Shown here: piece by piece, positions 53,854-63,926 of the stretch
Layout of the letters: each line of letters starts with the position of its first letter
How positions within the stretch are numbered: position 1 is the stretch's first letter
From: a virus
Taxonomy: Duplodnaviria; Caudoviricetes
IMG/VR virus record: IMGVR_UViG_3300021399_000108
Location: 99,521 to 163,520 of that record
Length of the DNA stretch: 64,000 nucleotides
Reading direction: 5' to 3' (one strand)
Made by a program: the position numbers and the translations under genes
Notes under the pieces: generated by a model
Database searches by the model: none
What the model saw: only the letters and a program-made list of their open reading frames with translations
What the model was told of the DNA's origin: nothing

Positions 53854-53970
53854 TGGCCATATCTATATTTTTAGATGTTAAACATCTATTTTTTATGATT
53901 GACAACTATTAGATTCTTTGCTATAATTAAGATGTTCCAAGGAACAAAACAGAAAGAGAGGGAAAATACC

Positions 53971-54820: not shown

Positions 54821-54942
54821 GCGCTTATATTTTTTAGATGTTAAACATCTAAATATATCTATTGACACATACATATATTTATGGTATACTCTATTTGTAC
54901 AAAAGAGAAGGAAACTCTAACAAACCAGAAAGGAACAAAATT

Positions 54943-55146
54943 ATGAAGAAATATACGGTTGCGGAAGCTATTGGATATTTGATTGGTTCTCTTCTTATTG
55001 GTGTAGCTTTTCCGGCAGGACTGTTTACTCTTGCGTGGAATAATGTAATTGCAGATGCTTTTAACACCGCGCATTTCAACTATTGGACTTTCTTTACAGT
55101 GTGCTTAGGAATTTATTATCTTCGAGGAAATAAAAGTGCTAAGTAA
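54943..55146 (+). CDS. Small membrane protein
   Basis: Two hydrophobic segments; SD AAAGGA. Confidence 0.75.
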   Translation: MKKYTVAEAIGYLIGSLLIGVAFPAGLFTLAWNNVIADAFNTAHFNYWTFFTVCLGIYYLRGNKSAK

Positions 55147-55253
55147 TTAGCACTTTTATTTTCAAATTAGATGTTAAACATCTAAAAATAATAATTGACA
55201 ATCTTTCAAAGTCATGCTATAATAAAGCCATAAAAGAAAGGGAGGAACGAGTC

Positions 55254-55439
55254 ATGGAAAACAGATTTCAGATTATCACGGTATACGAAGATTGCGCGAG
55301 CAAAACAGAAAGCGTATCTGATATTCAAAGAGCACTTGAGGCCGCAAGTATTTATTGGATGGATCCCGATTGTCTGATCATAACAATTTATGATTTTAAA
55401 ACCCAGTCTACAATTTTAAAATATAACAAGCCGGAATAA
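55254..55439 (+). CDS. Hypothetical early protein
   Basis: Promoter, SD GGAGG, stop codon in hairpin. Confidence 0.75.
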   Translation: MENRFQIITVYEDCASKTESVSDIQRALEAASIYWMDPDCLIITIYDFKTQSTILKYNKPE

Positions 55440-55539
55440 CCGGCTTATTAAATTAGATGTTATACATCTAAACGCACCCCTTGACATTTCCATATATACA
55501 TGATATAATTTCATTATCAAATGGAAGGAGAGAAGAAGT

Positions 55540-55776
55540 ATGTACTATATTCATTATTACATTAATAACCAGCCCCATCGCTATGAATATGCTTTCGATT
55601 CCTTGTGGGCCGCAATATTTAAAGCTCGGGCGATCTTTGAAGAACATGGTATTCCTACCGACGTAATGCACGCAATGACAGGTGAAGTTTTAGCAATCTT
55701 TCAGCCCAATCATATCGAAATTAATGATGATTTAGAAGTTGACATTCAAGTTTTGGCTCTTACTCCGCTTGAATAA
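55540..55776 (+). CDS. Hypothetical early protein
   Basis: Promoter, SD AAGGAG, stop codon in hairpin. Confidence 0.75.
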   Translation: MYYIHYYINNQPHRYEYAFDSLWAAIFKARAIFEEHGIPTDVMHAMTGEVLAIFQPNHIEINDDLEVDIQVLALTPLE

Positions 55777-55896
55777 GCGGAAATTCTATTTTAGATGTTT
55801 AACATCTAAAATTATTAATTGACATTTTTCTAAATATATAGTATACTTATTTCAGAAAGACAAGGAAAAGTCTTTAAAACCAGGAAGGAACAAAGC

Positions 55897-56121
55897 ATGA
55901 AGGTTTATGTAGTTATTGAAGATGGCTGTGTTGAAGGTGTTTTCGATTCTGAGGGAAAAGCAGAAAACAAGATTGTAGATTGTGTAAAACATGATGAAAT
56001 TTCTCAGAATTTTTATGTAGATGATATTATTACAGGCAGATTTACCGGCACAATTGAAGAATGGGTACGAAAAGGAAATGTAAGTGATTATTGGTCTATT
56101 GAAGAATGGGAGGTGGAATAA
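55897..56121 (+). CDS. Small acidic early protein
   Basis: MKVYVV...GVFDSEGKA; promoter, leader hairpin, SD. Confidence 0.75.
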   Translation: MKVYVVIEDGCVEGVFDSEGKAENKIVDCVKHDEISQNFYVDDIITGRFTGTIEEWVRKGNVSDYWSIEEWEVE

Positions 56122-56360
56122 TCCACCTTTTATTTTTAAATGTTAGATATTTAATTTTTAATTTGACTTTATAAAAATTTATTGTATAATGTTATTACAA
56201 AATAAAGAAGATCAAGCACATAGACGTCTATCTGGTATGATATTTCAACTCTAATTTCATTTTATTTTTGAAACTTAGATGTTAAACATCTAACTATCAG
56301 GCTTGACTATATCCCAAAATTATGATATACTTTAATCATCAAAGAGAGGAGGACGAGACA

Positions 56361-56681
56361 ATGGAAATGACCTACCATGTACAGTATCAGCGTGCGGACA
56401 GAGTAAAGCATATCATTGAAGAAATTGGTATTGGTCAGGTAATTCGAGAGAAGTATATAGGTGCTGGTATGTCAGCTGGTAAATATATCTGTATTACAGA
56501 CACGGGTATAACACTGGTAAAAAACGAAGATAAGACAAAGCTGGTAACTATGTATGTTACAACACAGCATGAGCTGGTCATGGTTTATGGCGGAACTAAA
56601 AAGATTCCGGCGTTTCTAAAAAAGAAAGTAGATCATAATCAAAGTAAATTTATTAAAGAAGGAAAAACAATTTGGCGCTAA
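56361..56681 (+). CDS. Hypothetical early protein, paralog of 53518-53853
   Basis: SD GAGGAGG; motifs shared with the paralog. Confidence 0.85.
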   Translation: MEMTYHVQYQRADRVKHIIEEIGIGQVIREKYIGAGMSAGKYICITDTGITLVKNEDKTKLVTMYVTTQHELVMVYGGTKKIPAFLKKKVDHNQSKFIKEGKTIWR

Positions 56682-56825
56682 AACGCCAAATTTTTATTTT
56701 TAGATGTTAAACATCTAATTATATTCAGAAATAATTTTAAAAATATCTTGACAATTTTATTTTCATATAGTATAATGATTAAGAAAGTTGAAGGAAAACA
56801 ACTCAAAACCAGAAAGGACAACAAC

Positions 56826-57506
56826 ATGGAAAAGAAGCAGATTATCGTATTGGATACCGAAACTTGCAACATTCATAAAACTGATGAAGTCATTCCTGGC
56901 AATAATCTCACCTATAATATCGGTTGGGAAGCCGTTGTCCCAACTACTGGTGAAGTTCTTGAAGAACGTTCTTACCTTGTGCCGGAGATTTTTATGGGCG
57001 AATGGCGGAAAATGCAAACGGCATATTATGCAGATAAAATTCCGCAGTATTGGGCCGGATTGGCAACTGGTGAATATATTATGAAGCCGTTTTTTGAAAT
57101 TATGGTAGAAATTATCAAGTATTGCAAGAATCATAATGTTGTTGCAATTTGCGCGCATAATGCAAGATTTGATATTGACGCGCTTAACACAACCGCCGAA
57201 TATTTGACAGGGTATCGTTCCCGAGTGCTACCCGACCTTGAAGTCTGGGACAGTATGAAAATGGCCCGTTCTATATTTAATAATCGTCCTTCCTATAAAA
57301 ATTTCTGTACTGAAAATGGTTTTATGACTAAACACAAGACCCCGCGGTGTCAACTTACGGCAGAAGTTCTTTATCGTTTTATTACGCAGGATGTAGAATT
57401 TAACGAAGAACATACAGCCCTTGAAGATGTAAAAATTGAAAGTGAAATTGTCTTCGCTTGTTATCGTGCTCATAAGAAAATGGACAAAGTTCTGTTTCCC
57501 GCATAA
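56826..57506 (+). CDS. DEDDh (DnaQ-like) 3'-5' exonuclease
   Basis: VLDTET, AHNARFD, HTALED. Confidence 0.9.
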   Translation: MEKKQIIVLDTETCNIHKTDEVIPGNNLTYNIGWEAVVPTTGEVLEERSYLVPEIFMGEWRKMQTAYYADKIPQYWAGLATGEYIMKPFFEIMVEIIKYCKNHNVVAICAHNARFDIDALNTTAEYLTGYRSRVLPDLEVWDSMKMARSIFNNRPSYKNFCTENGFMTKHKTPRCQLTAEVLYRFITQDVEFNEEHTALEDVKIESEIVFACYRAHKKMDKVLFPA

Positions 57507-57632
57507 TGCGGGAAATTATTTAGATGTTAAACATCTAATATTCATTATTAAAAATTATAAAAAAGTCTTGACAAGACTATATGACTATGCTATAATAGGG
57601 TTGTCCGAAAGGGACAGGAAGGAGATAAAAAT

Positions 57633-57869
57633 ATGAAACCTAATAAAAATACTTTTGATGGATTTTCTACTGAGGAACTTGGTGCACTAATTGAAACACT
57701 TACAGCAACATATAAAGAGCGCCTTGAAAAAGATAAGCGCCGCAAGAAAGCCGAAGAATATGAAGGTAGAATTTATGATCTAATTTCTGAGGCACAGTCT
57801 GATGGTTTTGATGTTCGTATTAATGACGCATATATTCCTAAAGATAGTGCAGTTAATGTTGATTGGTAA
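57633..57869 (+). CDS. Hypothetical early protein
   Basis: Promoter, SD AAGGAG, 78 aa. Confidence 0.75.
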   Translation: MKPNKNTFDGFSTEELGALIETLTATYKERLEKDKRRKKAEEYEGRIYDLISEAQSDGFDVRINDAYIPKDSAVNVDW

Positions 57870-57893
57870 TATAGGAGAAAGGAAGTAAAAGTA

Positions 57894-58073
57894 ATGCGAG
57901 ACGCAGAAAAAGGAACTTACAATAATGAACCTGTTTTCTGTACTGTTAATGCTTATGGTGATTGTCCTTATTGTGATGAGTTTAACAGATGTCACATTGC
58001 AGACCCGATTGAAGATTGCGATGATTTTGCTTCTTTTTTTGAATCATGGGATGATTGGCTTGGAGCTTAGTAA
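57894..58073 (+). CDS. Small acidic Cys-rich protein ending TAG-TAA (absent from ORF track)
   Basis: MRDAEKG...CPYCDE...CHIADP.EDC...WDDWLGA; SD AAAGGA. Confidence 0.7.
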
Positions 58074-58352
58074 TTGGCGGTTAAACCGCCATTATTATTT
58101 AGATGTTAAACATCTAAAAATATATAAGAAATTAAAGAAAAAAGTTATTGACTTTTTCTATAAATTGTAGTATACTATAATTGTTCCAAGGGAAGGAACA
58201 AACAAAAGTGCCCAATGCCTATTTGAGGCGGGCGTCACACCTTCGGCCGTTCGTGTGACAAAAAAACTCTTGACAAACTACAAAATCAGTGCTATAATAA
58301 ATACGTAATCAAGAGAAGGAAAACTCTTAAAAACCAGAAAGGAAATTAAATT

Positions 58353-58682
58353 ATGTCTATGAACGCTTCTGAAATCAAGTCTGTCGCTCGTACTAACACT
58401 GTCGCTCTGCTGTCTGATGTTTTTGAAGCTAATGATGCCGTTCAGTTTGCTGACGCCTCTTGGGCTATCTTGCAGGAAGTTGACGGACAGGAAGTATGGA
58501 CGGAAATCACCGTCAAGAGCAAGGCTTATAAGCCGACTAAGGTTTCTCCGGTGTTTGATCCTTATGAAATTGCCGAAGAGTGGAAGGCCGAAAAGGAAAT
58601 GAAGGCCGCCGAGAAAAAGGCTAAGGAAGAAGAAAAGGCCCGCAAGATTGCGGAAAAGAAGGCGAAGGAAGAGGCGGAGTAA
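58353..58682 (+). CDS. Early protein with Lys/Ala/Glu-rich tail, probable paralog of 59594-59995
   Basis: Tandem promoters; FDPYEIAEEWK vs FDGYAAAEDFK; KAAEKKAKE tail. Confidence 0.8.
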   Translation: MSMNASEIKSVARTNTVALLSDVFEANDAVQFADASWAILQEVDGQEVWTEITVKSKAYKPTKVSPVFDPYEIAEEWKAEKEMKAAEKKAKEEEKARKIAEKKAKEEAE

Positions 58683-58917
58683 TCCGCCTTTTCAATTTCA
58701 TTTTAAAAATTTAGATGTTAAACATCTAATTCTAATACTTGACTTTTTCCTAAAATTATACTATACTGTTATTGTCATCAGGGAGGGGACAACAAAGAGT
58801 AAACAAAAAAACTTCAAAAAAAGTTGAAAAAAACTCTTGACAAGTTCCCGAAACTGTGATATAATAAATACGTAAACAGGACAAGGAAAAGTCCTTAAAA
58901 CCGGAAAGGAATTAAGT

Positions 58918-59277
58918 ATGAAGAAGAACACTATGCAGACCCTCGTCGCCTATTTCTCTGTTCAGGACTATCTTCCTTCTGATGTCGCTGATGCTGTTGA
59001 TGAAATCAAGGCCGAACTGAACCGTGGCGCGGAGAAGGCGCAGAAGAATCGTGAACTGTATGAGAGTGTAAAGCCGATTGTGTGGGAAGGCTTCCGCTCT
59101 GCTGGCGTCCCTGTCACTATCTCTGAACTGTTTGAAGAAATCAAGAACAAACTGCCTGATGGCTTTGGCAAGTCTAAGGTACAGTATGCAGTCACCCGTT
59201 TGTGGATTGGTGAACTTGTGAAGAAGGAAGGTAAAGTTAATGCCTACACTCTTCCGGAACTTGCAGAAAGGGCGTAA
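58918..59277 (+). CDS. Winged-helix-like protein, paralog of 61174-61503
   Basis: PVTISELFEEI...KVQYAVTRLW...GKVNAY. Confidence 0.75.
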   Translation: MKKNTMQTLVAYFSVQDYLPSDVADAVDEIKAELNRGAEKAQKNRELYESVKPIVWEGFRSAGVPVTISELFEEIKNKLPDGFGKSKVQYAVTRLWIGELVKKEGKVNAYTLPELAERA

Positions 59278-59593
59278 GCCCTTTCTTTTTTTTATAATTT
59301 CATTTTAGATGTTAAACATCTAAATATTATCAAAAAATTATAAAAAATTTCCCTAAAAAATACTTGACAACTATTATAAATTATAGTATAATAAAGGTGT
59401 TCCAAGGGAAGAAATGGAAACCTCGCAAGTCATCACTGAGGCTCAGCTTAAATGCTCTCGTGTAGTTTAGAAGCGTTAAATAAAACATCCTTTGGAAAAA
59501 TTAAAAAAACACTTGACAAACCTCAAACAAAGTGCTATAATGTAAGAGAACTAAGGGAAGGAAAACCCATCAAACCGGAAAGGACGAAAAATT

Positions 59594-59995
59594 ATGACTA
59601 ACACCGCTCTGAACACGAATCTGCGTAACTCTATCCTGCGTGACTTTATGGAGTTCGTCGCTGGTAAGTATGAAACGGACACGCTTTCCTGTTCTTCCTC
59701 TTCCTTTACATTCCCGGTTGTTGATGAAGAAGGAAATGAAAAGTTCGCTAAGATTTCAATTTCAATTCCCCGTGGCACTCGCAACGGTGAGGGCGGATAT
59801 GATGCTTTTGATGGATACGCCGCCGCGGAAGATTTCAAGCTTGAACAGGAAGAGAAGGCCGCAAAGAAGGCCGCGAGTGAAGCAAAGAAGGAAGCTAAGC
59901 GTAAGGCCGATGAAGCTAAGCGCGAAGCAAAGAAGGTAGTAAAGGAACTGAATGAAAAGGGCCTTGATGGTATGATTAAGGAAAGTGCGGAATAA
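59594..59995 (+). CDS. Early protein with Lys/Ala/Glu-rich tail
   Basis: Tandem promoters, SD, KAAKKAASEAKKEAKRK tail. Confidence 0.8.
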   Translation: MTNTALNTNLRNSILRDFMEFVAGKYETDTLSCSSSSFTFPVVDEEGNEKFAKISISIPRGTRNGEGGYDAFDGYAAAEDFKLEQEEKAAKKAASEAKKEAKRKADEAKREAKKVVKELNEKGLDGMIKESAE

Positions 59996-60115
59996 CCGCA
60001 CTTTTTTGTTTAGATGTTTAACATCTAAAATCCATACTTGACAACTAAAATATTTTATGGTATACTGCTTATGAAAAGTGAAGGAACAACACTTTAAAAC
60101 CAGAAAGGTATTATC

Positions 60116-60490
60116 ATGGTATTTAAAAGAAATAAAAAGGAAAACGTCTCTGAAACTATTAACGATAAAGAATATGCCAAATTATGGGATGATTGTTTCT
60201 TAGGACAAAAATTAGTAGAAGATATAATTAATGAGTATAAAATAAAAGAAATTAAAACTAAACTTTTCCCTACAAATACAGATGATTATAATATGGCATT
60301 GAAAGAATATCAAGAAATAAAAACAAAAATAATGATAGCAAAATCAGCATATAAAATGCAACTTAATAAAATAAAAGAATATTATGATAATCATTATAAT
60401 AATTTAGTCTATACAAAAACTTGGTTGCCTACACAATGGTTATCTCCGGATGAAGTTATTGAACGCACGATTAAAAGGGTTTTTAAATAA
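60116..60490 (+). CDS. Hypothetical early protein (AT-rich)
   Basis: Promoter, leader hairpin, 124 aa. Confidence 0.75.
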   Translation: MVFKRNKKENVSETINDKEYAKLWDDCFLGQKLVEDIINEYKIKEIKTKLFPTNTDDYNMALKEYQEIKTKIMIAKSAYKMQLNKIKEYYDNHYNNLVYTKTWLPTQWLSPDEVIERTIKRVFK

Positions 60491-60594
60491 CCCTTTAAAA
60501 ATATTTAGATGTTTAACATCTAAAATAAATGCTTGACAAATAACAAGGTCAATGTTATAATCAATATGTAAAAAAGAAACGGGAGGATAAAATT

Positions 60595-60759
60595 ATGACA
60601 AAGCGATATGTAACTCGGCAGTATCTTTGGAATACATTCTATACTTGGGGTGTATGGGATAAAAAAGAATGTAAATGGATTGTAAATGATAGATTGTATA
60701 GAAGAAATGTTCTTGAAATTGCGGATAAACTAAATAAAGAAAATAATAAGACTGTATAA
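60595..60759 (+). CDS. 54-aa hypothetical early protein (absent from ORF track)
   Basis: SD GGGAGG; MTKRYVTRQYLW...; stop codon in hairpin loop. Confidence 0.7.
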   Translation: MTKRYVTRQYLWNTFYTWGVWDKKECKWIVNDRLYRRNVLEIADKLNKENNKTV

Positions 60760-61173
60760 TACAGTCTTATAAAATTAGATGTTTAACATCTAAATATCAT
60801 TAGAAAAAACTTCAAAAAAGTTATTGACATATTTTCAAATCTATGGTATTATATCTGTGTCAGGTGAGGGGAGCAACCCTGGCAGGTCAAGGCAGGTTGC
60901 CGAAAGTCAACAGAGACAAGACGCATGGACGACGGAAACATTTGGCCAATAGCAAACAAAATGTGCGAAAAAAGTTTGCGAAACCCCTTGACAAACTCCC
61001 GAATCTATGATATAATAAAGATGTTCCAAGGGAGAGGATATTCCGAAATGCCCAACACGCTATCGAAAAATTCCTCTCCCAAAGGAAAAACCCCTTGACA
61101 TTCTCCACAAAATGTGGTAGAATATAAAAGAACAGAGGAAGGAAAACCTCAACAAACCAGAAAGGAAATTATT

Positions 61174-61503
61174 ATGACTAACGCTTCTCTGAACACTATC
61201 TACGCCGTGCTGTCCTCTGTCGATTTTGAGAACAAGGAAACCGTGCTTGCCGAAGTTTACAAGGATCTTCATCGCAACGATGAAGTCAAGGCAAAGAAGG
61301 CCGAAGCTTATGACGCTCTGCACGATATTATTGTCGGCGCTCTTGATGAAACTCCCGTTACTTGTGCCGAACTTTATGAAAGCATTGAGGACAAGTTGCC
61401 CGCTCGTGGTATTCGTGGCAAGGTGCAGTATGCTCTGACGCACCTGTGGCAGGATGAAATCAAGATCATTCCCGGCAAGCCGAACACTTACTGCCGGGCG
61501 TAA
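61174..61503 (+). CDS. Winged-helix-like protein, paralog of 58918-59277
   Basis: PVTCAELYESI...KVQYALTHLW...GKPNTY; three tandem promoters upstream. Confidence 0.75.
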   Translation: MTNASLNTIYAVLSSVDFENKETVLAEVYKDLHRNDEVKAKKAEAYDALHDIIVGALDETPVTCAELYESIEDKLPARGIRGKVQYALTHLWQDEIKIIPGKPNTYCRA

Positions 61504-61506
61504 TAC

Positions 61507-61543
61507 AAGAAAAGAACCGCTCTCAGCGGTTCTTTTCTTTTTT
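61507..61543 (+). terminator. Intrinsic terminator
   Basis: AAGAAAAGAACCGCT-CTC-AGCGGTTCTTTTCTT followed by a T-run. Confidence 0.85.
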
Positions 61544-61644
61544 AAAAAAATTAGATGTTAAACATCTAAAATGTATTCTTGACATTTCCTTATCTATATG
61601 ATATATTATACTTGTCCCAAAGGGATAGAAAGGAAGTAATCACT

Positions 61645-62115
61645 ATGACGAATGAAGTTATTAAAGCAATGCAGAGCAAGAATAGAAAAGAACATAAAAT
61701 TCGCAAGTGGTGGAATAAAAATAGCTATAAGATTCTTCGCGTAATTCTATTCCCGCTCTGGATTGGTAGTATACTGTTTGAAAAAATTCATGCATGGCTT
61801 AACAGCAAAGAAGCATGGAGCGAAAAACGTGCAAACGAAATTCTAAACTATTACATTCCTCGTCGTTCTCATTGGGACGCCGAAAATAAAAGTTTTGACT
61901 TCTTTGATAATGGTATGGGTTGGAATATCAAACTTGCAAAAAAATATTTGAAATTAAAAGACCGTAGATTCTGGAAAGTTCATTGTGCTTGGTGGGGTGG
62001 GAAAATGCGGAGTTTTCTTATGGACAAATTTGAACTTGAAGGCTTTACAAAAGAACTTGGTAATTGTTCCGAAGGATGGACAGAAGTTTTTTTCATACTA
62101 AACGAAAAGGAGTGA
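61645..62115 (+). CDS. Trp-rich protein with one transmembrane segment
   Basis: ILRVILFPLWIGSILF; SD AAAGGA. Confidence 0.75.
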   Translation: MTNEVIKAMQSKNRKEHKIRKWWNKNSYKILRVILFPLWIGSILFEKIHAWLNSKEAWSEKRANEILNYYIPRRSHWDAENKSFDFFDNGMGWNIKLAKKYLKLKDRRFWKVHCAWWGGKMRSFLMDKFELEGFTKELGNCSEGWTEVFFILNEKE

Positions 62116-62277
62116 ACAAGTCCATCATACACTACAATATAATTGTTAAAGGCGACTAACTCGCCTTAATATATTAGATGTTAAACATCTAAAATATTCT
62201 CTTGACATTTCAAAATAATATGTTATACTATCTATGAAAGGTGAAGGAAAACACCATAAACCGGAAAGGGCAAGGGC

Positions 62278-62769
62278 ATGAAATCTAACTATAAAATTCG
62301 CGCGCAAAAATTCATCCCTGTTATTGATGAAATTATTTATAATCATTGCAATATTGAATTGGAAATCAAACGTTTTAATGAAAAGCATAACCGTAGAGTT
62401 ATTTTTGAATATGGCTCGACACGTTATGCGTTTATTACATCTGATTATGTTATTAAAATGGATTATGATGATGGTGAAATTGAACGTTTCGGTGGTTGTG
62501 AAGATGAAATGGAACTATACGCGTCCGCCGTAGAAGATGGCATGGAATATCTTTTCGCAGAAATCACAAAATATGAATATAACGGGCATAATTATTACAT
62601 TATGCCCCGCATTAAAGGAATTGGCAGAACTTATGACAATGCAGAAGATTATATGACCGATAAAGAATTTATCTGGTGCAATGCTCACAAATTAACAGAC
62701 TTACATTATTTGAATTATGGTTGGAGAAATCGGCATATCTGTATTATAGATTATAGCGCTCGTGATTGA
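62278..62769 (+). CDS. Minimal protein-kinase-fold protein
   Basis: GSTR, YVIK, alphaC-like E, IMPRI, DLHYLNYG, IIDY. Confidence 0.7.
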   Translation: MKSNYKIRAQKFIPVIDEIIYNHCNIELEIKRFNEKHNRRVIFEYGSTRYAFITSDYVIKMDYDDGEIERFGGCEDEMELYASAVEDGMEYLFAEITKYEYNGHNYYIMPRIKGIGRTYDNAEDYMTDKEFIWCNAHKLTDLHYLNYGWRNRHICIIDYSARD

Positions 62770-62906
62770 GCGCTTTTAATTTAGATGTTAAACATCTAAA
62801 AAATATTTGGCAGCATTTAAAAAAAGTTGTTGACAAATCTTCTTTTCCGTGGTATTATGTTTACGTAAAGAGGAAGGAAACCTCACAAACCGGAAAGGAA
62901 ACTAAA

Positions 62907-63656
62907 ATGAGCAGAATTGTACTGGATACCGAAACCGCCGGAAGTCTGAACAAGCCCTTTGCGTATGATGTTAGCTATAAGGTTATTGGTGATGATGGAG
63001 ACAGCCTTGCGGAAAAGCATTTTGTGGTTGAACAGGCATGGCATAATCTCCCCCTGTTTGAAAGTGCTTACTATAAAGAAAAGCGCCCTAAGTATGTAGC
63101 ACTCATGCGGGCACGTAAAGCAGAAATGAAAAAATACGGCCATATTATGCAGGAATTGAAAAGAGACATCAAAAAATATGATGTAAAAGCCGTTTATGCT
63201 TACAACAGTGATTTTGATGATAATGTCATTACCTTTAATTGTGATTGGTATAAATGCGAAAATCCTCTTGATAATGTTCCCGTATTTGATATTATGGGCT
63301 ATGCAGGACAATTCATCACTAACACGCCGGAATATAAAGCTTTTTGTGAACAGCATAGTTTCTTTACCGAATCAGGAAATTATAGTCAAACAGCAGAAAC
63401 AGTTTTCCGTTATATTACGGGCAATGTTGATTTTGAAGAAGCACACATGGGCTTGATGGATTGTAACATTGAAACAGAGATTTTGCTCACTTGCTTTAAT
63501 GAAGGCGCCGTTCCTGAAACCGAATATCAGAAAGTCCGGGTTCTTGAAAGACCGCATAAAACCCCGTACATGATTAAAATTAATGGGAAAGTATTTTATC
63601 AGGGCGAATATCTGAAAAAGACACAGCGTAATAATGTATGGTACTTCACTGAGTGA
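62907..63656 (+). CDS. DEDDh (DnaQ-like) 3'-5' exonuclease, paralog of 56826-57506
   Basis: VLDTET, AYNSDFD, HMGLMD; shared TAExxxRxIT motif. Confidence 0.9.
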   Translation: MSRIVLDTETAGSLNKPFAYDVSYKVIGDDGDSLAEKHFVVEQAWHNLPLFESAYYKEKRPKYVALMRARKAEMKKYGHIMQELKRDIKKYDVKAVYAYNSDFDDNVITFNCDWYKCENPLDNVPVFDIMGYAGQFITNTPEYKAFCEQHSFFTESGNYSQTAETVFRYITGNVDFEEAHMGLMDCNIETEILLTCFNEGAVPETEYQKVRVLERPHKTPYMIKINGKVFYQGEYLKKTQRNNVWYFTE

Positions 63657-63782: not shown

Positions 63783-63926
63783 ATGAAAGTGATTGGCAGT
63801 CTCGCAATTTTATTTTCAAGTTGGGGCCTGATTTGGGGAATATTTGATAGAAAGTTTCTTCCCTTAACACTTATTGGTATTGCGCTTTCTGGTTTATATT
63901 TTTATGGTATGAAAGGAGAACATTAA
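63783..63926 (+). CDS. Small membrane protein
   Basis: Two hydrophobic segments; own promoter. Confidence 0.6.
   Translation: MKVIGSLAILFSSWGLIWGIFDRKFLPLTLIGIALSGLYFYGMKGEH

Follow-up and report, generated by a model that had tools for sequence, protein, structure and literature searches.

What is the short repeated sequence that stands before one early gene after another in a large uncultured phage, and what might it do for genes that have so little in common? We analyzed this question in the window, a stretch of 64,000 nucleotides (nt) that forms the last 64 kb of the 163,520-bp IMG/VR record IMGVR_UViG_3300021399_000108, a 163-kb gut or rumen phage (Duplodnaviria; Caudoviricetes) with 32.7% GC and a CheckV completeness of 93%. 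The element is a leader of ~45 nt, comprising a small hairpin, an A-rich tail, a Shine-Dalgarno (SD) sequence and the ATG of the gene that follows, and it occurs ten times between positions 54904 and 62909. A first-pass annotation had noted these hairpins and the element 3' of them, and had likened the arrangement to the architecture of CsrA/RsmA targets. Our comparative analysis points to a different structure, newly identified here, in which the hairpin loop base-pairs to the conserved CC in the tail, giving a predicted H-type pseudoknot with a core of about 24 nt directly beside the SD.

Ten leaders before early genes

All ten hairpin + AAACCRGRAAGG units described by the first-pass annotation are present, with 5' arms starting at 54904, 55856, 56786, 58311, 58878, 59555, 60075, 61135, 62240 and 62870. 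Their loops read AAGGAAA(A), or AAGGAACAA at 60081, and every hairpin is followed by AAACC(A/G)G(A/G)AAGG and then, 7-10 nt past the GG, by an ATG. There are ten exact matches to AAACCRGRAAGG, all on the plus strand, and one match with a single mismatch on the minus strand (chance expectation 0.68). From a gapless alignment of relatives we built a covariance model (R1), which recovered exactly these ten units in the window, at 28-57 bits, with the next-best match at 12.7 bits, and located four further copies at the opposite end of the record, including one on the minus strand and one sequence variant. The ten hairpins in the window start 8-13 nt 3' of a strong sigma-70-type -10 box, and with standard spacing between -10 box and transcription start the element is predicted to lie within ~2-8 nt of the 5' end of the transcript.

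Covariation of the hairpin stem

Compensatory changes in the stem had previously been taken as a sign of selection on RNA structure, and a wider alignment of relatives bears this out. At least four contiguous pairs flank the loop in 84% of 162 unique viral copies, compared with 16% (maximum 22%) when the arms were swapped between copies, and the same 162 copies contain 27 different 4-nt arms. In a gapless alignment of 68 sequences (A2), 87% of the stem cells are paired versus 55% after shuffling. The covariation score of the stem is 0.81 versus 0.19 in shuffled alignments, none of 500 shuffles scored as high, and slid controls reached 0.18 at most. A MAFFT alignment (A1) was left out of these counts because its variable flanks had moved the loop by 1 nt. 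Only four pairs of the stem, here called P1, are strictly kept, the closing pair being nearly always G-C or C-G. The 5' arm is purine-rich, with a purine at three of the four positions in 80-95% of copies, and by itself the hairpin has weak stability (-1.8 to -6.1 kcal/mol).

When copies were anchored on the SD only, a hairpin or an AAGGAA motif stood just 5' of it in 245 of 246 unique copies, the loop taking the form AAGG plus 3-5 variable bases ending in A; when they were anchored on the hairpin only, the ACC of the tail was retained in ~96% of copies, even where the SD differed. Overall, the covariation of P1 is genuine, and its compensatory changes show that selection acts on the structure of the RNA.

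Pairing between loop and tail

The loop and the tail also change together. Loop GG occurs with tail CC in about 190 unique leaders, the loop AACGACA always occurs with the tail AAACGAG, and loops of the AAGG type never do. In an alignment of 38 sequences (A5), 33 rows have GC at the loop-tail pair 9:28, the other 5 have CG and no row is unpaired there; the pair neighboring it is GC in all 38, and none of 500 shuffles reached the observed score. Scanning the whole of IMG/VR for the matched CG:CG form returned 26 unique matches, of which 20 were genuine, with many different stems, whereas the two mixed combinations of loop and tail gave 10 and 13 pattern matches and not one genuine copy. The same switch is seen in a second sub-class, in which the loop AGGTTCAA goes with AAAACC (eight genuine copies) and ACGTTCAA with AAAACG (two), and in which the loop-tail helix can extend to 4 bp (GGUU:AACC). 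One of the 11 copies of this sub-class that pass the stem and ATG filters is non-complementary (AAGTTCAA with CC, on a 2.2-kb contig); we judged it to be a chance match. Further complementary combinations of loop and tail are UG:CA, CCG:CGG, CUG:CAG and CGU:ACG. Among 214 strictly defined unique leaders, two break the rule (permutation over loop and tail types, p = 0.003).

Complementary double changes of this kind can be explained by pairing within the molecule but not by a fixed partner in trans such as rRNA or a protein, which argues for a minimal H-type pseudoknot. In this model the core of P1 comprises 4 bp; L1 consists of A or AA; P2, of 2-4 bp, is formed in the main class by loop nucleotides 3-4 (the GG of AAGGAAAA) and the CC of the A-rich tail ..AAACC; L2 has 2-5 nt ending in A; and L3 has 4-7 nt ending in AAA. 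The distance from the end of the loop to the CC is a constant 9-10 nt in the units of the window. The pseudoknot would explain why the ACC and the AAA before it are conserved and why loop size is restricted.

Connection to the ribosome-binding site

The suggestion that the unit is a leader shared by early genes and linked to their ribosome-binding site is supported. The SD, RGAAAGGR, starts 0-1 nt past P2. In the family in which a near-identical contig was binned, 16S rRNA has the 3' end ..GGAUCACCUCCUUUCU, and RGAAAGGR can make eight pairs with the last 8 nt of the 16S rRNA of this likely host family (..CCUCCUUUCU). The bases flanking GAAAGG are mainly purines, position 6 being A at a frequency of 0.90 and G at 0.06, and position 13, just after the GG of the SD, being A at 0.56, G at 0.31, C at 0.07 and T at 0.06; purines at these two positions are what pairing to U of 16S rRNA predicts. 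Although the spacing between leader and ATG is tight, the distance to the -10 box varies (7-18 nt), and about 10% of copies in other phages are internal, lying past a stop codon or past another 5' hairpin. Taken together, these features indicate that the element is tied to translation initiation and not strictly to the 5' end. We also considered pairing of the ACC with extra 3' bases of 16S rRNA and rejected it, since in that family the 16S sequence ends ..CCUCCUUUCU and then A(U/A)GGAG, which offers no complementarity.

Distribution and likely hosts

The leader pattern was found in at least 118 IMG/VR stretches, mostly from rumen or gut metagenomes, the contigs reaching 240 kb in length. In all, over 300 distinct copies were gathered, from a lineage of uncultured phages of 90-240 kb that infect Clostridia of the gut and rumen. 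The 26 large relatives carry 1-16 copies each, and in records with several copies these lie clustered within 10-15 kb. We also scanned 596 Gb of prokaryote genomes, where copies with a stem of at least 3 bp and an ATG at the right distance were counted as genuine, and matches with stems of 0-2 bp and no start codon, which occur in any phylum, as chance. Genuine copies come almost only from metagenome-assembled genomes (MAGs) of Clostridia (Acutalibacteraceae, Oscillospiraceae, Christensenellales and others), with single genuine copies in MAGs labeled Elusimicrobiaceae and Ornithospirochaeta. Because the MAG copies are restricted to a few phage-like contigs, the element belongs to phages and not to host genes.

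One of these genomes (G001; MAG JAZQHA01, 2.3 Mb, labeled Acutalibacteraceae) has 32 leader copies on seven contigs, including a contig with ~86% identity to the window, and it therefore contains DNA of several related large phages; its contigs include C67, C68, C77, C176, C186 and C217. The phage contigs of this MAG represent either a host link or contamination during binning. Searches for previously described relatives were negative. No Rfam family matched the window, the main leaders or the variant leaders, at the gathering threshold or at permissive E-values. In the GenBank phage collection, megablast gave no match at all and blastn no match to the leader, its one weak match (Enterococcus phage RioGrande, E 1e-4) covering query positions 1-61, the promoter part. 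A literature search with the motif strings returned unrelated eukaryotic matches only. The leader is a very small and very abundant structured RNA that matches no Rfam family, and the comparative support for both of its helices is clean enough for direct curation as a new family.

Possible functions of the leader

The reading that we favor, giving it about an even chance, is that the element, which is portable between unrelated genes, acts in cis as a context-independent high-expression leader that is read by the unmodified host ribosome. The compact fold would keep the adjoining SD single-stranded whatever gene comes next, the SD:anti-SD helix may stack on P2, and the folded 5' end and the initiating ribosome could together protect the mRNA from the 5'-end-dependent decay (RNase J/RppH type) that is known from Firmicutes. 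In Bacillus, mRNAs are stabilized by 5'-proximal structure or by a bound ribosome (review PMC3997798). We infer that host machinery is the reader from the number of copies (1-16 per complete relative), from the 79 unrelated clusters of client proteins, and from the outcome of searches for a regulator, in which CsrA, cold-shock domain and S21 genes were not found in the phage; a search for RegA matched nothing in any control genome and so says nothing about the phage. The earlier suggestion of a regulon or a translation enhancer stays alive, with the pseudoknot as the object that is recognized, whereas its other option, a CsrA sponge, is not supported.

Several points weigh against this reading. 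P2 of the main class has only two canonical pairs and P1 alone is weak, so folding may depend on a ligand, on Mg2+ or on a protein, as it would in a regulatory switch. A fold that abuts the SD could hinder binding of the 30S subunit instead of helping it, and the invariant A residues of L1, L2 and L3 could form a binding pocket and not only A-minor contacts. Finally, Acutalibacteraceae/Oscillospirales are the likely hosts, by an assignment that rests on MAG binning.

The main rival, which we think rather unlikely, is such a regulatory switch. The mini-pseudoknot would be the sensor of a post-transcriptional regulon, and a small ligand, as in a riboswitch, or a phage or host RNA-binding protein would stabilize or melt P2 beside the SD and thereby time or shut off early translation. 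A 2-bp P2 is marginal by itself, A1, A2, the last loop A and the tail AAA are invariant, and the short P1, A-rich L3 and very short P2 beside the SD match the topology and dimensions of the preQ1-I aptamer (review PMC11625349). The protein in question would possibly be the winged-helix early protein that is the most constant client. It is the client in three of the four single-copy complete relatives, and the leader stands before 85 of 110 genes of its family, which makes autoregulation conceivable. Set against this, L2 is variable (AAAA, ACA, ATA, CCA, AACAA) and has no conserved specificity base, the clients are unrelated in function, the bases of the SD lie outside P2, none of the RNA-binding regulator families searched for was found in the phage, and the copy number ranges from 1 to 16 across phages. 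The leader could also be a new minimal class of pseudoknot with one of two roles: timing early translation by sensing a ligand or protein, or docking the ribosome, in which case the helix between the SD and the extreme 3' end of 16S rRNA would stack on P2. This is a tentative proposal, possible but doubtful in our view; if true, it would mean a phage-specific commandeering of translation initiation in Clostridia that lack CsrA.

It seems improbable that the hairpin is a plain 5' stabilizer that displays an auxiliary SD-like AAGGA, of the STAB-SD or SP82 polypurine type, and has no tertiary pairing. Its predicted 5'-proximal position, its purine-rich 5' arm and loop, the complementarity of AAGGR to the anti-SD, and the precedents in Bacillus and SP82 (as summarized in PMC3997798, citing Hue 1995 and Agaisse 1996) all suit such a role, but the module is kept when the loop is AACGACA, AGCCGAA or AGCTGAA, which have no SD-like sequence. 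Moreover, the loop GG covaries with the tail CC and is therefore paired and not free, and a generic stabilizer needs no fixed loop size or spacing. The narrower proposal that the loop AAGGA is a free auxiliary or standby SD is weakened in the same way, by the non-SD variant loops and by the loop-tail pairing. Also quite improbable is a function at the level of DNA, either as a recombination substrate for the shuffling of cassettes, as in the PeSL cassettes discussed below, or as an operator for the early winged-helix proteins 3' of the promoter. A close relative does show indels of whole cassettes with junctions in repeated palindrome/promoter DNA, and distant relatives share no DNA better conserved than the promoter together with the leader. 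There are also cores of the GGAA type, and no client is commoner than the winged-helix proteins. The free covariation of both helices, however, is a signature of single-stranded pairing and not of protein-DNA contacts or recombination. In addition, the element is strand-specific, is placed relative to the start codon and not the promoter, and occurs intact far from promoters; shuffling is compatible with a function in RNA and is no substitute for one.

Should the leader boost or insulate translation, as in our favored reading, it would be a compact, naturally occurring expression part for use in Firmicutes; as a switch, it would show how these phages schedule early protein synthesis.

CsrA and other regulators considered

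The comparison with CsrA/RsmA targets, in which a CsrA dimer would bridge a GGA in the loop and a second GGA in the SD, is easy to understand. In the main class, AAGGA stands in the loop and, at a distance of 23 nt, AAAGGA at the SD, an arrangement that resembles the architecture of the hag leader. We nevertheless reject it as very improbable. The GGA is unconserved at both sites. The base after the GG of the SD is A in only 56% of copies and G in 31%, the A or G here fitting wobble pairing to U of 16S rRNA and not a requirement for GGA, and the loops AACGACA, AGCCGAA, AGCTGAA and AAGGC/T.. are without GGA. The loop GG is engaged in P2, and CsrA (PF02599) was found neither in the phage nor in any of the five MAGs holding such phage contigs, MAGs that are incomplete and whose hosts are assigned by binning. 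It is present in only 5 of 61 sampled Acutalibacteraceae genomes. The likeness to CsrA/RsmA sites is thus superficial and confined to the main sequence class, and the present result corrects a tempting but wrong assignment.

Two other candidates were also rejected. No phage antisense RNA directed at the leader was found; beyond the leaders themselves there is one antisense 11-mer, inside a coding sequence at 63884, which is at chance level. A resemblance to the binding site of PyrR, whose sequence is CCAGAGAGG, was not supported, the Rfam PyrR family remaining unmatched at E-values up to 10.

Comparison with known leader elements

The fold invites comparison with preQ1-I (RF00522), the smallest H-type pseudoknot riboswitch, which likewise has a short P1 hairpin, an L1 of 1-3 nt, an A-rich L3 before P2, a very short P2 made of loop bases and a 3' tail, and an SD lying at or beside the 3' strand of P2 (PMC11625349). 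Unlike preQ1-I, the leader lacks both the conserved specificity C of L2 and the U of L1 (its L1 is AA and its L2 variable), its P2 does not bury bases of the SD, and its clients are unrelated phage early genes and not genes of queuosine synthesis or transport. A cmscan search of the leaders gave no preQ1 match at E-values up to 10. The resemblance is one of predicted fold topology only and not of family membership.

In distribution and placement there is a close parallel with the start-associated sequences (SAS/ESAS) of Cluster K mycobacteriophages (Pope et al. 2011, PMC3203893), which are also phage-specific, asymmetric, conserved and SD-containing, lie a few nt before the starts of about 10-19 unrelated nonstructural genes, and are absent from the host chromosome (PMC3203893); their function is presumed to concern translation initiation (PMC3203893). 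They differ from the leader, which is mostly promoter-proximal, in sequence and in host phylum, and the inverted repeats of ESAS were judged by the authors not to support RNA pairing (PMC3203893), whereas both helices of the leader covary. Being phage-specific, SD-including, at a fixed distance from the start and rare in the host, the leader fits SAS-like criteria; this is a functional class and not a homologous family.

The PeSL cassettes of T4-type phages (PMC2839356, PMC4122927) are, like the cassettes described below, repeated composite regulatory units that flank small early genes within a plastic region, and they too show whole-gene indels between close relatives with junctions in repeats (PMC4122927). 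The stem-loop of PeSL, however, is a terminator 5' of the promoter, whereas the structure in the leader is an SD-tied pseudoknot in the 5' untranslated region, 3' of the promoter; in the phage, separate terminators stand 5' of the palindrome and the covarying structure begins 8-13 nt past the -10 box. Finally, the SP82 polypurine element and the cryIIIA STAB-SD (as cited in PMC3997798) share with the leader a 5'-proximal, purine-rich, SD-like character and an occurrence in Firmicute or phage early mRNA, and plausibly, by analogy, protection from 5'-end-dependent decay. As described there, those elements work as free SD-like sequence bound by ribosomes, whereas the loop bases of the leader are paired and can be replaced by non-SD sequence.

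The ten units and their genes

All ten units lie on the plus strand. Module 1 (54904-54945; R1 46.2 bits) has P1 AGAG/CTCT, the loop AAGGAAA at 54908-54914 and the tail AACAAA, followed by CC at 54925-54926, the SD AGAAAGGA at 54927-54934 and the ATG at 54943; its promoter (TTGACA-17-TATACT) ends at 54890, and its client is a 67-amino-acid (aa) membrane-like protein. In module 2 (55856-55899; 49.5 bits), P1 is AAAGAC/GTCTTT with loop AAGGAAAA, CC lies at 55880-55881 and is followed by the SD AGGAAGGA and the ATG at 55897, the promoter ends at 55847, and the client of 74 aa has a sub-threshold match to DUF7336 (24.6 bits; cut-off 25). Module 3 (56786-56828; 53.6 bits) combines AGTTG/CAACT and AAGGAAAA with CC at 56809-56810, AGAAAGGA as SD, the ATG at 56826 and a promoter ending at 56776, and precedes a 226-aa DnaQ-like exonuclease (phrog_20187).

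Modules 4, 5, 6 and 8 each follow two or three tandem strong promoters and precede GC-rich conserved early genes; these promoter groups span 58148-58298, 58739-58865, 59364-59541 and 60824-61123. Module 4 (58311-58355; 56.9 bits; AAGAG/CTCTT, loop AAGGAAAA, CC 58334-58335, SD AGAAAGGA, ATG 58353) comes after the second of two promoters (58148-58176 and 58270-58298) and serves a 109-aa GC-rich conserved early protein. Module 5 (58878-58920; 52.2 bits; AGGAC/GTCCT, loop AAGGAAAA, CC 58901-58902, SD GGAAAGGA, ATG 58918), with promoters at 58739-58767 and 58837-58865, serves a 119-aa winged-helix protein (cluster 0), and module 6 (59555-59596; 34.9 bits; GGG/CCC, loop AAGGAAAA, CC 59575-59576, SD GGAAAGGA, ATG 59594), with promoters at 59364-59392 and 59513-59541, a 133-aa protein (cluster 1). 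Module 8 (61135-61176; 52.2 bits; GAGG/CCTC, loop AAGGAAAA, CC 61157-61158, SD AGAAAGGA, ATG 61174) lies after the third of three promoters, at 60824, 60988 and 61095, and its client is another winged-helix protein of cluster 0, of 109 aa. Between the tandem promoters are 70-130 nt of noncoding, hairpin-rich sequence with no U-run terminator, and these intervals could be long structured leaders or small RNAs.

Module 7 (60075-60118; 45.6 bits) has P1 AAAGTG/CACTTT with loop AAGGAACAA, CC at 60100-60101, the SD AGAAAGGT, the ATG at 60116 and a promoter ending at 60066; it serves a 124-aa AT-rich protein, and its entire cassette is missing in a close relative. Module 9 (62240-62280; 41.7 bits) carries GGTG/CACC and AAGGAAAA, with CC at 62261-62262, the SD GGAAAGGG, the ATG at 62278, a promoter ending at 62229 and a client of 163 aa. 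Module 10 (62870-62909; 28.1 bits), with GAGG/CCTC, loop AAGGAAA, CC at 62890-62891, the SD GGAAAGGA, the ATG at 62907 and a promoter ending at 62858, precedes a 249-aa paralogue of the DnaQ-like exonuclease.

Across all phages examined, the client genes, that is, those downstream of the leader, fall into 79 unrelated protein clusters. The largest, with 96 members, is a small winged-helix protein that includes the products of window 58918 and 61174, followed by a family of unknown function with 43 members and by the DnaQ-like exonucleases, third commonest with 21; Pfam and PHROG annotation of the client proteins gained little. The two winged-helix paralogues of the window (58918-59277 and 61174-61503) have a long N-terminal helix and then the winged-helix domain. 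The AlphaFold2 model (AF2; predicted local distance difference test score, pLDDT, 94) gave generic winged-helix matches only in a fold search, and the best profile match is to the Hop2 winged helix (E 8e-5). Related phages each have 1-6 members of the family. Its genes gave 114 matches, four of them too near the end of their locus, and the leader is exact in 85 of the 110 that could be assessed; several of the remaining genes have variant leaders. Both DnaQ-like 3'-5' exonuclease paralogues of the window, at 56826-57506 and 62907-63656 (phrog_20187, E 1e-30 to 1e-32), have the leader.

Five early genes (58353-58682, 58918-59277, 59594-59995 and 61174-61503 in the window, and 570-965 of the record) have 43-49% GC and a GC content at third codon positions (GC3) of 0.44-0.55; neighboring early genes have 24-39% GC, and the genome as a whole 32.7%. 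The families of these GC-rich genes are the ones in which the leader is most constant. Their high GC could stem from a host-like choice of codons that suits very early and very high expression, or from a foreign origin.

Organization of the early region

The early region covers 52.5-64 kb of the window and the first ~5 kb of the record. The palindrome TTAGATGTTWAACATCTAA occurs 32 times in this region, including 22 times inside the window, and each early cassette has the order terminator, palindrome TTAGATGTTWAACATCTAA, near-consensus TTGACA-17-TATAAT promoter and one small gene. The leader is part of these terminator-palindrome-promoter-leader cassettes, which are gained and lost blockwise. 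A relative (L153; contig JAZQHA010000067.1 of an Acutalibacteraceae MAG, ~86% identical) lacks the sequence corresponding to window 60048-60504 and 61609-62168; these indels affect whole early-gene cassettes, and their junctions fall in 19-bp palindrome/promoter repeats, which points to shuffling of cassettes at the repeats. Between distant relatives, the best-conserved DNA is the promoter plus the leader.

Two further features of this region were noted. The terminator hairpin at 59265-59286 has the arms AGAAAGGGC and GCCCUUUCU, the 3' arm copying the anti-SD end of 16S rRNA; this arm could pair with the SD of the leader, which, in one terminator only, is probably due to chance. A second class of leader occurs on the plus strand at 53934, 54321, 57600, 58183, 59399 and 61023 of the window. 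Its predicted transcripts start 5-6 nt past the -10 box with GTTCCAAGG.. or GTTGTCCGAAAGG.., and its hairpin has a conserved stem of the GTTCC/GGAAC type and a purine-rich loop. This second class is also found in relatives, where it sometimes stands 5' of the pseudoknot leader.

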